DNA from: Nannocystales bacterium
GTDB lineage: Bacteria; Myxococcota_A; Polyangia; Nannocystales; Nannocystaceae
Reading direction: 5' to 3'
NCBI GenBank assembly: GCA_050633305.1
Contig: JBOEGF010000011.1
Span: 315,317 to 370,467, forward strand
DNA length: 55,151 nucleotides
Shown: piece after piece, positions 44,356-48,728 of the stretch
Layout: every line of letters starts with the position of its first letter
Numbering within the stretch: the first letter of the stretch is position 1
Program-made: the position numbers and the translations under genes
The notes under the pieces: generated by a model
Databases searched by the model: none
What the model saw: only the letters and a program-made list of their open reading frames with translations
Told to the model about the DNA's origin: nothing

Positions 44356-44430
44356 CGGGGTGTGGCGCAGTTTGGCTAGCGCGCCTGTTTTGGGTACAGG
44401 AAGCCGGAGGTTCGAATCCTCTCACCCCGA
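44356..44430 (+). tRNA. tRNA-Pro(TGG)
   Basis: Acceptor CGGGGTG/CACCCCG, anticodon arm CCTGT-ttTGGgt-ACAGG, T-loop GGTTCGAATCC. CCA not encoded. Confidence 0.96.
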
Positions 44431-44487
44431 CTCGAACCCGCATCGTCTTCAACCTCTGTTGCTGGCGATGCGGGTTCGAACTTTTCT

Positions 44488-44561
<74 letters not shown>

Positions 44562-44562
44562 C

Positions 44563-44587
44563 TTGGCCCCACCGGTGGTGGGGCCAA
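44563..44587 (+). terminator. Hairpin after tRNA-Arg (terminator or processing stem)
   Basis: TTGGCCCCACC-GGT-GGTGGGGCCAA is a perfect 11-bp stem; the U-tract is weak. Confidence 0.55.
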
Positions 44588-44717
44588 CCTTATGTCCGGC
44601 GAAGTCTCCCATGTGTGGAGCCCGGCCTTCACGACGGCGCGGACCCGAGGCCGGTGGCCTGCGCGATGGCAGCCCCGGGCAGCCCCCCGCGACTGTGAAT
44701 TGCCCTACGATTCGGGG

Positions 44718-45773
44718 GTGGGCCGAGCGTGGGTGAAGGGGGGCGGGGCCGTGGCTCTGCTGGGTCTCGGATACGTCCTCTTCGCGCCGGTCGACGCTGA
44801 GCCGGCCGCCTGGGACCCACCACCATTGGGCGACCTTGGAGAGCCCGCCGCGGTGTCGGTGGCGGTTCACGCCGAGGGCCTCGGCGTGGGTCCGGAGGAT
44901 GTGGCGGTCGACGGGGAAGGGCGCGTCTACACCGGGGTCGAGGACGGACGCATCGTCCGCTTCGCACCCCCGCAGGGGGAGCCGGAGGTCTTCGCGTCGT
45001 TGTCGGGCGGTCGTCCGCTGGGGATGGAGTTCGATGCCGCGGGGCGCCTGATCGTGGCAGACGGCCGCGCGGGGATCGTGGCGGTGGAACGCGACGGAAC
45101 GGTCAGCACGCTCGTCTCCGAGGTCGACGGCGTACCCTTGGTGTTCGCGGACGACGTCGACATCGCCCCGGACGGCACGATCTGGTTTTCGGAGGCCTCG
45201 ACACGATGGAGCGTGTCCGAGTCGACGCTCGACGCCATCGAAGGGGTCCCGACCGGACGCCTGATCTCCTTTCACCCGGAGCACGGCGAGCCGACGGTTC
45301 ATCTGCGCGACCTTCGGTACGCCAACGGTGTGGCGGTGACCCCGGACGGGCAAGCTGTGCTCGTCACAGAGACACTCGGCTACCGCGTCACGCGGCTTTG
45401 GATCGACGGCCCCCAGCGTGGCGAAGTGGACCGATTCGTCGAAGGCCTGCCGGGGATGCCCGACAACGTGCAGACCGATGAGGATGGCCGGGTGTGGGTC
45501 GCCCTGGTCAAGGAGCGCAGCAGCCTCTTGGATGCCCTCTACCCACGGCCATGGGTCCGCAAGATCATGTTTCGAGTGCCGCACGCCTGGCTGCCGGTTC
45601 CGCCGCCCATCGTGTGGTTCGCGGTCTACAGCCCCGACGGGACTCGGTTGCGTTCATTTCGTACAGACGAAGGTTTTGGCGATGTGACGAGCGTGACGCC
45701 ACACGGGGCCGACCTCTGGCTGGGAAGCCTGTCGATGCAGGCGGTCGGTCACCTTCCGCGGCCGACGTTGTAA
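44718..45773 (+). CDS. SMP-30/gluconolactonase/strictosidine synthase family beta-propeller
   Basis: GPEDVA, GRPLGM.F, F.DD.DI..DG, ANGVA and LPG.PDN, with an N-terminal TM helix. Confidence 0.9.
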   Translation: MGRAWVKGGGAVALLGLGYVLFAPVDAEPAAWDPPPLGDLGEPAAVSVAVHAEGLGVGPEDVAVDGEGRVYTGVEDGRIVRFAPPQGEPEVFASLSGGRPLGMEFDAAGRLIVADGRAGIVAVERDGTVSTLVSEVDGVPLVFADDVDIAPDGTIWFSEASTRWSVSESTLDAIEGVPTGRLISFHPEHGEPTVHLRDLRYANGVAVTPDGQAVLVTETLGYRVTRLWIDGPQRGEVDRFVEGLPGMPDNVQTDEDGRVWVALVKERSSLLDALYPRPWVRKIMFRVPHAWLPVPPPIVWFAVYSPDGTRLRSFRTDEGFGDVTSVTPHGADLWLGSLSMQAVGHLPRPTL

Positions 45774-45832: not shown

Positions 45833-46189
45833 TCATACTTTGATGGCGAGTGCGGCGTTGGCCATGATGTGGCGAGCCATGCCCAGGTTTCCTTGCTTTC
45901 GGTCGATCGCGAGGTAGAGAAACAGGGTCTTGCCGATCGGTCGGATGAGGTGCAGCTGGGAGGTGAGCGTGATGAGGATGTCCTCGATTCCGCCGTCGAT
46001 CTCCAGCTGGTCCATGACCCGAAGTTTGGCCCGGACCACGTCGGTGTTGCCGGCCGCTGCCACTTCGAGGTTGAGGCCGTTGCCCACAGTGCCCAGTGCC
46101 ATGCCGCTTTCATGGTCGACGAGTGCTGCGCCCAGGAAGCCTGTGATGTCGGACTCGAGTTTCTTGAGAGTGTCTTGTACGTTTTGCAT
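45833..46189 (-). CDS. Roadblock/LC7-like protein
   Basis: GFLGAALVD.ESGM.L, AAAGNT.VVRAK, IEDILITL..Q.H.IRP and NL.MAR, with SD GGAG. Confidence 0.85.
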   Translation of the reverse strand: MQNVQDTLKKLESDITGFLGAALVDHESGMALGTVGNGLNLEVAAAGNTDVVRAKLRVMDQLEIDGGIEDILITLTSQLHLIRPIGKTLFLYLAIDRKQGNLGMARHIMANAALAIKV

Positions 46190-47502: not shown

Positions 47503-48312
47503 TCACGGCTTGAACTCGGCGGCGGCGGTCGAGACCACGCGGCGAGCCATCGCGAGGTTACCCTCGGTCCGGTCCAGAACAACGCAGAGGAAGCGCGCAT
47601 CATCCACAGGTCGGAGGATGCAGAACCAGTGGTCCAGGCTAATCAGGATGTCCTCGAGCGTGCCCGCGAGGTCAAGCTGTTCGAGGAGCCGCATTTTCGC
47701 CTGGAGGAGCCCCTGGCTGCCCGACACGGCCAGTCGCGTGTTGTCGGGACTGCCCAGGGCACGCAGCGTCGTACCGTTGGCCTGGTCGACCAACGCGGCC
47801 GCGAGAAACCCGGCGACGCCCCGCTCGATGCTCGAGAGGCATTGGTGGCCTGCCGCGGAGCCGCTCGAGCTGGTCCCGAAGCTGGGCGTCAAAGGAGCGG
47901 CGGGCGTCTTTTCCGGAGTGTCCGCTGGCGCCGGACCGGAGCAGACGGGAGCCAACTCGGTGTTGGTCCTGCGACGTCGGACGGCCGCGGGGCGGCTCGT
48001 GAGTGCCGCGATGCGCTCGTCGTATTTGCCGTCGCGGAGCGAGATGCACATCTCACGATGCGAGTGCCGCATCAGCACTTGAATCTGGCCTCGGGAGTGG
48101 CGGTGGGCCCGGTACTCCGTCTTGCGTGAGGCGATCACCGTCCCGGCGAAGAAAATGTGCGAGTGGATGTGGCCGTGCGGTCCGCCGGAGTCTTCTGTCT
48201 GGACGTGGAACAATCGTCCCTGGTGACGGAAGTTGTGGTTGTACCCGAACTGGAGCTCCTGGCCGGCCGGCGGGCCTTCCACGGATGAGGTGCTCTCTTG
48301 AACGGTGGTCAT
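47503..48312 (-). CDS. RomY N-terminal-like domain fused to a roadblock/LC7-like domain
   Basis: N-terminal GYNHNFRHQGRLFHVQTEDSG..H.HSH.F..G..IAS.KT.Y...LM..SH.EM...L..G.YD; the C-terminal domain is paralogous to 45833..46189. Confidence 0.75.
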   Translation of the reverse strand: MTTVQESTSSVEGPPAGQELQFGYNHNFRHQGRLFHVQTEDSGGPHGHIHSHIFFAGTVIASRKTEYRAHRHSRGQIQVLMRHSHREMCISLRDGKYDERIAALTSRPAAVRRRRTNTELAPVCSGPAPADTPEKTPAAPLTPSFGTSSSGSAAGHQCLSSIERGVAGFLAAALVDQANGTTLRALGSPDNTRLAVSGSQGLLQAKMRLLEQLDLAGTLEDILISLDHWFCILRPVDDARFLCVVLDRTEGNLAMARRVVSTAAAEFKP

Positions 48313-48728
48313 GAATGCCCCTTGCATAGCCGGACTTGGCGGATACGCTATCGTGCAGTTCGCAGGTCTGCGAGCTGCGCGTCGCACATATACTCCTGTG
48401 CGACCCTGTACAGCGTTGTTCTACAGGTGTGTTCCGGCGGGCCGGTCATGTGGCCAACCGCCCAAGAAAGGTAGTGGACACGCAATCTTGCCGTCAAGCG
48501 GGTTCAGCGATTCCGTGCTGAACTGCCGGATTCCGCGCCGTATGGTCTGTTTTGCAGCTCACAGATTCCACCGCCGACATAGCTGCGGCGGGGCCGTGGT
48601 TGGTTCTGAACGGCGTTTCCTGGATTTGCTCCAGATTTGTCGGTGTGGCTGGATGTACGGCGAGCGCTCACGCTGGGATGGCGAGGCGGCCGTTCGGTTG
48701 GTGCTGCGCACGGGAGGCTGCTGGCAGA

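Follow-up and report, generated by a model that had tools for sequence, protein, structure and literature searches.

A RomY-type N-terminal domain fused to a roadblock-fold domain in a Nannocystaceae operon

A RomY domain and a roadblock fold in one reading frame

The window, that is, the whole stretch of 55,151 nucleotides that was analysed (Nannocystales bacterium, family Nannocystaceae; assembly GCA_050633305.1, contig JBOEGF010000011.1), contains four co-oriented genes on the minus strand, in the order P0001, P0003, P0004 and P0002, which encode three roadblock-fold proteins and one coiled-coil-like protein. The first gene, P0001 (47503..48312, minus strand), was translated as a single uninterrupted reading frame of 269 aa and its ATG is preceded by a purine-rich stretch. 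Alternative in-frame starts lie upstream, and the protein would comprise 294 aa if begun at 48387. P0001 consists of a RomY N-terminal domain, a linker and a divergent roadblock domain ('RbB') without internal methionine; it belongs to the fusions that we call type I below.

We took the conserved N-terminal domain of Myxococcus xanthus RomY (residues 8-89) as the criterion for RomY identity. Residues 21-99 of P0001 (48016..48252, minus strand) matched the RomY_Nterm profile NF053858 with 87.1 bits (cut-off 50; E 7.8e-25), covering profile positions 2-83 of 83. The domain retains 28 of the 31 positions conserved among 56 stand-alone RomY rows, and the three deviations are T51S, I59V and K86R. 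The partly conserved C-terminal motif of RomY is absent from P0001, where the roadblock occupies its place; the same pattern is present in six of the seven stand-alone RomY-type proteins checked.

The RomY domain is followed by a low-complexity linker composed of Pro, Ser, Thr and Ala (47863..47994, minus strand; approximately residues 107-150; pLDDT ~50) and by the roadblock-fold domain (47506..47859, minus strand; residues 152-269). Residues 156-268 share 38% identity with P0002 (43/113, E 1e-27), the product of the stand-alone roadblock gene of the same operon. In the AlphaFold model of P0001 (mean pLDDT 82.5), both domains are well folded and the linker between them is of low confidence; the pTM of 0.49 indicates that the two domains would have no fixed mutual orientation in the monomer. 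The C-terminal domain shows roadblock topology in this model (alpha-beta-beta-alpha-beta-beta-beta-alpha). Fold searches with residues 145-269 only matched MglC, MglB, archaeal and other roadblocks (Foldseek E ~1e-6, VIA Z ~16; for 9jue, Z 16.6 and rmsd 2.0 over 115 residues), with MglC as the best Foldseek match. Pfam's Robl_LC7 model (PF03259) assigned only 14.3 bits to P0001, below its gathering cut-off of 23; some members of the roadblock superfamily are reported to escape the Pfam model (available text of PMC4316618). Neither P0001 nor P0002 had a significant relative when solved structures were searched by sequence, and the ESM Atlas contained no large cluster with a clear match to the entire fusion (the top feature score of 0.87 is no more than a lead). 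The preliminary description of this DNA, made from the letters alone, had assigned the N-terminal block to the RomY N-terminal domain and had read the gene as one protein joining it to a roadblock paralogous to the product of 45833-46189; both points hold.

Purifying selection acts on both domains. Relative to the gene of a same-genus genome, pN/pS was 0.23-0.27 in the RomY domain and 0.38-0.49 in the roadblock, compared with 0.80-0.84 in the linker. An assembly or frameshift artefact, which had been named as a possible refutation, was ruled out by this selection together with full-length homologues from other sources (34-66% identity) and the synteny of the locus, which is retained in a same-genus genome. 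Contigs of one DNA run cover parts of the operon and none crosses the linker, so that they are uninformative on the junction itself; this run contained 0.40 of the words of the sequence, and no RNA run was listed.

The second gene, P0003 (47056..47478, minus strand; 140 aa, start uncertain), encodes a third, highly divergent roadblock-fold protein. Its model, built from five rows, reached a pTM of 0.71 with MglB as the top Foldseek match (E 1e-4), and homologues adjoin the fusion in four other fusion loci. P0004 (46250..47059, minus strand; 269 aa), whose start overlaps the P0003 stop, encodes a coiled-coil-like protein with weak profile matches of SMC/tropomyosin type only. Homologues of P0004 were found at loci L081 and L082 and coiled-coil-like genes occupy the same place in L085 and L087, and we regard P0004 as a candidate scaffold. 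The last gene, P0002 (45833..46189, minus strand; 118 aa), encodes a stand-alone conserved roadblock ('RbA') and its ATG is preceded by GGAG. The profile of its family matched solved roadblocks weakly (7yh1, E 0.008; MglC 7ct3, E 0.021). A complex prediction with MglA, P0002, the fused roadblock and the RomY domain scored 0.00 against a mark of 0.32, in a job that was unlike the calibration and whose controls were unfolded, and we give this score no weight in either direction.

Promoter and terminator scans of the locus yielded nothing above chance. A strictosidine-synthase-like beta-propeller gene of ordinary appearance (44532-45773, plus strand) converges on the operon, and genes for tRNA-Pro and tRNA-Arg (44356-44431 and 44488-44562) lie 1.3 kb from the operon end. 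The flanking synteny is kept in the same-genus genome, which argues against a recent insertion.

The fused roadblock and the polarity genes of the genome

The source genome (11.0 Mb, 65.9% GC, 92% complete) carries a separate canonical romY on another contig (C19, 101 bits). Where this RomY falls on the RomY-domain tree, together with the source names of close homologues, suggests Nannocystaceae. P0001 is thus an extra RomY domain and not the polarity RomY itself, which answers a check raised in the preliminary description. The genome also possesses mglBA on contig C15, with an MglB highly similar to that of M. xanthus (E 4e-49), a separate gene that we label MglC-like by resemblance, and an orphan group-1-type mglA on contig C11. 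A six-frame profile search of the genome revealed no further MglA-family GTPase beyond these two, and the assembly, which is 92% complete, did not yield the type of GTPase that accompanies related roadblocks in operons elsewhere. The orphan MglA paralog (L102:5320-6039, 239 aa) lies between dnaK/dnaJ-like and kinase-like genes, and we take it to be SofG-like by its length and type. A second free roadblock, 91% identical to P0002, is located behind an apparent ssb fragment on a contig of 2551 bases (L107:1857-2213, contig C82); this copy possibly stems from another strain or is mobile.

The identity of the fused roadblock as MglB was rejected. BLASTP against the MglB of the genome gave E values of only 0.15-0.48 and hhalign assigned a probability of 1-12%. 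MglA is reported to bind the MglB dimer on its helix-2 face, and Arg substitutions at Thermus A68/A72, which correspond to M. xanthus A64/G68, to lower the affinity tenfold and to abolish the stimulation of MglA (available text of PMC3199381); RomY has also been placed on the helix-2 face of MglB (PMC10329633, in its available part). The MglB of this genome has A65/G69 at these positions. In all three MAFFT modes, P0001 presented Q204/R208 and P0002 R53/R57 in the same columns, and the P0002 family (16 rows) has Arg in 13/16 at the first column and Arg or Lys in 13/16 at the second. The hhalign register, of 1-12% probability, differs and places the small residues G201/A205 there. From these alignments, we lean towards a fused roadblock that is bulky at the MglA-contact positions and would thus be non-GAP. 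The other roadblock encoded in four loci with a GTPase mostly has small residues at the contact positions.

We found no GTPase gene within 4 kb at any of 18 fusion loci (0/12 of those with full flanks), compared with 10 of 23 hand-picked non-fusion loci that have one (4/13 with full flanks), a comparison that is no statistical test. In metagenomes, an MglA-family GTPase was encoded in 34 of the 37 loci of at least 8 kb, some of them with a GTPGQ motif; these come from 80 fetched loci, many of which are close kin and not independent. The GTPGQ motif is reported to mark MglA groups 2-5, and systems with two coupled roadblocks have been described (available text of PMC4316618). Judged by sequence, the roadblock family of P0001 and P0002 is large, unnamed, usually coupled to MglA-type GTPases and below Pfam's cut-off. 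By analogy, it looks like the accessory roadblock of two-roadblock MglA systems, a place that M. xanthus gives to MglC (PMC4719450, in part).

These results bear on a claim of the preliminary description, namely that the fusion converts the low-affinity MglB/RomY complex into a tethered GAP. The RomY half of this interpretation stands; as written, the GAP half is not supported, since by BLAST and hhalign the fused roadblock is not MglB and it aligns Q204/R208 to A64/G68. A related possibility is that the fused roadblock and P0002 together form a self-contained GAP, which the linked RomY domain would boost independently of concentration. The fold is as near to MglB as to other roadblocks, the family is coupled to MglA-type GTPases, an unfused operon (described below) contains both a GTPase and a romY, the hhalign register offers small residues, and a linker of ~45 residues could span the dimer. 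These observations are opposed by the lack of BLAST similarity to the genome's MglB, by the bulky contact residues in every MAFFT mode and by the absence of a cognate GTPase gene from every fusion locus. Moreover, such a GAP would abolish the concentration dependence that is described as central to polarity (PMC9481161, available text). Overall, we consider a self-contained GAP unlikely.

M. xanthus MglC (MXAN_5770) is among the closest known parallels: it is described as an orphan roadblock without GAP function that forms a bridge between RomR and MglB (available parts of PMC4719450 and PMC10329633). Like MglC, P0002 and P0001 are orphan roadblocks whose genome encodes group 1 MglA, and in the MAFFT register they would lack the small MglA-contact residues of MglB. 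At the acidic FDI surface of MglC, the P0002 family aligns an aromatic-acidic-Gly loop. The differences are that sequence similarity to MglC is weak (E 0.021), that one subunit of an apparent heterodimer is fused, and that the acidic residue of the loop is missing from the fused copy. There are also parallels with the MglA systems with two coupled MglB homologues described in the available text of PMC4316618, in that genes for GTPases of GTPGQ type and of group-1-like type neighbour this roadblock family, and with the receiver/PATAN-roadblock fusions described there, in that the family forms the C-terminal domain of receiver-PATAN proteins. Unlike those systems, the GTPase gene is missing from the present locus and a RomY domain occupies the N-terminal slot.

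Distribution, fusion types and domain mobility

The same architecture was sought elsewhere, as the preliminary description had suggested, and was found in 15 of 72 genomes of the source's family, covering 7 of 17 genera. In these 72 genomes, the RomY domain was present in 70 and this roadblock family in 41. The fusion count was obtained from the intersection of the two genome lists and a reading of the fetched loci, and the carriers are mostly metagenome-assembled genomes. We counted 21 fused copies in 18 loci, two of which are broken (a frameshift in L088 and a stop in L114), and some of the fused roadblocks are degenerate. A higher-scoring stand-alone romY was also identified in 14 of the 15 fusion genomes; the exception is 71% complete. 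Across 180 collected proteins, a permissive threshold gave 42 with both domains, a figure that counts near-duplicates. In 396 genomes sampled from the phylum outside the family, no match spanned both domains among the six candidates scored per genome.

The roadblock tree places the fusions in several positions. Grouping the type II fusions with free copies and a distant group of four was rejected (AU p 0.0008) in a test on a quick tree of 39 chosen rows, with the group named after an earlier tree was seen. This result argues against a single origin of all fusions, and these trees suggest that the RomY-roadblock fusion probably arose more than once. The N-terminal domain of the distant fusion group matches RomY weakly (3/6 at E < 0.002, all under the cut-off). 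Two proteins outside the family clade on the roadblock tree, P0047 and P0055, have a RomY domain above the cut-off. A tree of the RomY domain, built by a quick method from 117 rows and 87 columns, had long branches and little resolution.

The fusions fall into two types. In type II fusions the roadblock is conserved, with 66-86 identities to P0002, and the methionine at the start of the stand-alone roadblock is kept in 11/11 copies, and a free roadblock gene is present in the locus of just one of them; several lie near contig ends. Type I fusions, P0001 included, have a diverged roadblock in which this methionine is present in only 1/9 copies examined (the broken L114 copy left out), and a free roadblock gene adjoins 7 of 10. 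Because of this frequent pairing, it is plausible that P0001 forms a heterodimer with P0002, which would be the probable partner of the fused roadblock. Both types stand side by side in a cluster of L085 (8402-13125), where three RomY-roadblock fusions surround a free roadblock, a coiled-coil gene and a gene resembling P0003.

Within fusions, the roadblock family often retains the start codon of the stand-alone gene: this methionine was kept in 11 of the 20 fused copies examined and in 96 of 138 fused family members, ranked by a profile that contained type II rows, compared with 5-11 in equal control windows. One gene may therefore yield both a long and a short chain. The residues preceding the internal methionine are rich in Lys and Glu. 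A Shine-Dalgarno test was mixed, with internal starts in the top fifth of local controls in 6/11 type II and 3/9 type I copies. Taken from sequence features, internal restart is likely, and if it is real, both types supply one RomY domain per roadblock dimer. Alternatively, the internal methionine could persist by mere descent.

It is also possible that the long form has no role and is decaying: a duplicated romY would have lost its stop and joined, near-neutrally, a downstream roadblock gene with its own start. The internal methionine of so many fused family members, the patchy distribution over 15/72 genomes and the degenerate or broken copies are all in line with such read-through. Against it, the fusion covers seven genera, and the roadblock of type I proteins has lost the methionine (1/9), yet its pN/pS is 0.38-0.49, compared with 0.8 in the linker. 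The loss of this start under continued purifying selection implies that the roadblock is selected within the long protein, and we judge near-neutral read-through to be very improbable.

Both domains also occur in other contexts. Two genomes of one genus possess an unfused operon (L111:2812-8118 and L112:3587-7951), composed of a PATAN-like gene (by eye), two family roadblocks, an MglA-like GTPase, an unknown gene and a romY paralog (88-90 bits). Its GTPase is ~490 aa long with an unannotated C-terminal domain, and the unknown gene before the romY paralog encodes 347 aa. In L133, a RomY paralog immediately precedes an MglA-like GTPase gene, and three similar GTPase operons were found without romY. 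No RomY domain was detected in 96 further roadblock loci. A metagenome scan started from the distant fusion group failed to recover the neighbourhood of that group, and its 80 loci showed no RomY domain.

A scan of 121 hits identified, in front of the same roadblock, many receiver or PATAN domains and a few BLUF, kinase, TPR or MazE domains. Four proteins of 520-557 aa combine the blue-light sensor domain BLUF with this family (P0063, P0071, P0083 and P0091) and represent a possible light input to an MglA-type switch. On the RomY side, three tandem N-terminal domains are present in P0052, P0053, P0054, P0056, P0077 and P0081 and two in P0078; a further tandem protein is encoded at L127:5545-6123, and the later domains of tandem proteins are degenerate. 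MinD/FlhG-like ATPases with a C-terminal RomY N-domain were observed at L140:5608-6762, L141:5815-6864 and L142:5015-6052 (50.1 bits for the RomY domain of L140), an architecture found in several genera of the family. The Rosetta-stone argument, by which fusion implies joint function, is weakened because the roadblock family fuses to many unrelated domains; with both domains mobile, their co-occurrence can be cheap.

This mobility is compatible with a decoy or GTPase-independent adaptor, in which MglB or MglA-GTP would be titrated by the RomY domain with no stimulation of hydrolysis, or in which the two domains, as general interaction modules, link the scaffold to, for example, RomR. According to the available texts, Bdellovibrio RomY bound RomR directly (PMC11025332), no MglB is listed for Bdellovibrio in the S1 Table of PMC9481161, and RomY acting by titration of MglB was left possible (PMC13408092). 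The missing C-terminal motif of P0001 points in the same direction. We nevertheless regard this alternative as rather unlikely: purifying selection acts on a RomY domain that has kept nearly every conserved residue, and RomY paralogs recur next to MglA-like genes.

A candidate accessory module of the MglA switch

M. xanthus RomY (MXAN_5749) is described as the co-GAP of MglB/RomY (PMC9481161, available text), and P0001 resembles it in its N-terminal domain, in the presence of MglA and MglB in the genome and in the linkage to a roadblock. P0001 differs in being a second copy, in its covalent roadblock, which is not MglB, and in the absence of the C-terminal motif. The S1 Table of PMC9481161, in its accessible part, has one romY per genome and no fusion. 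Full-text searches, which covered mainly openly available papers, brought up neither a RomY paralog nor a fusion of RomY to a roadblock, and the arrangement is apparently undescribed.

Our tentatively preferred reading, to which we give slightly less than even weight, is that P0001 and P0002 form an MglC-like scaffold that offers a RomY domain in trans to an MglA-family GTPase and a true GAP. We infer every binding and activity step for P0001, whereas its domain identity, fold, selection and gene associations were observed. In a RomY paralog, an accessory roadblock of MglC-like (non-GAP) kind would have taken the place of the short C-terminal tail, and if this roadblock pairs with free P0002, each roadblock dimer would carry one RomY domain. 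The complex of RomY with the MglB dimer has likewise been modelled with one RomY per dimer (MglA:MglB2:RomY), and M. xanthus RomY's N-terminal domain is reported to confer most of the co-GAP activity and has been modelled on both MglA-GTP and MglB (PMC9481161, available text). The P0001-P0002 dimer may constitute a positioning scaffold, possibly joined by P0003 and the coiled-coil protein P0004. The tethered RomY domain would act in trans, and its candidate targets here are either the canonical MglA/MglB pair or the orphan paralog of MglA. Tethering would then substitute for affinity while the catalytic GAP lies outside the fusion, and the fusion probably keeps a weak-binding RomY near its small-GTPase target. 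The module as a whole resembles one half, the accessory one, of an MglA-roadblock operon, from which the GTPase gene was lost while a GTPase-binding RomY domain was kept. Against this reading stand the promiscuous fusions of both domains, the confinement of the unfused operon to one genus, the similar operons and further roadblock loci without romY, the failure to find the operon-type GTPase in this genome, a helix register derived from alignment only and the decaying copies.

A more elaborate scenario, which we consider unlikely, is that a one-gene asymmetric GTPase regulator has evolved repeatedly in bacteria. Internal restart would generate long and short chains and thereby one RomY domain per dimer, and duplication would have split these roles in the present operon. 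The RomY domain would re-route a module without GTPase onto the core MglA switch, as a second input independent of concentration.

The docking of RomY on MglA/MglB and the boost that it gives to hydrolysis are hard to study due to low affinity. The natural fusions, the unfused operon with its own GTPase and the series of two fusion types represent ready constructs for this purpose. The MinD/FlhG-like fusions connect RomY to a second class of polar ATPases. Finally, the same series of constructs would test whether the low affinity of RomY is essential for polarity.
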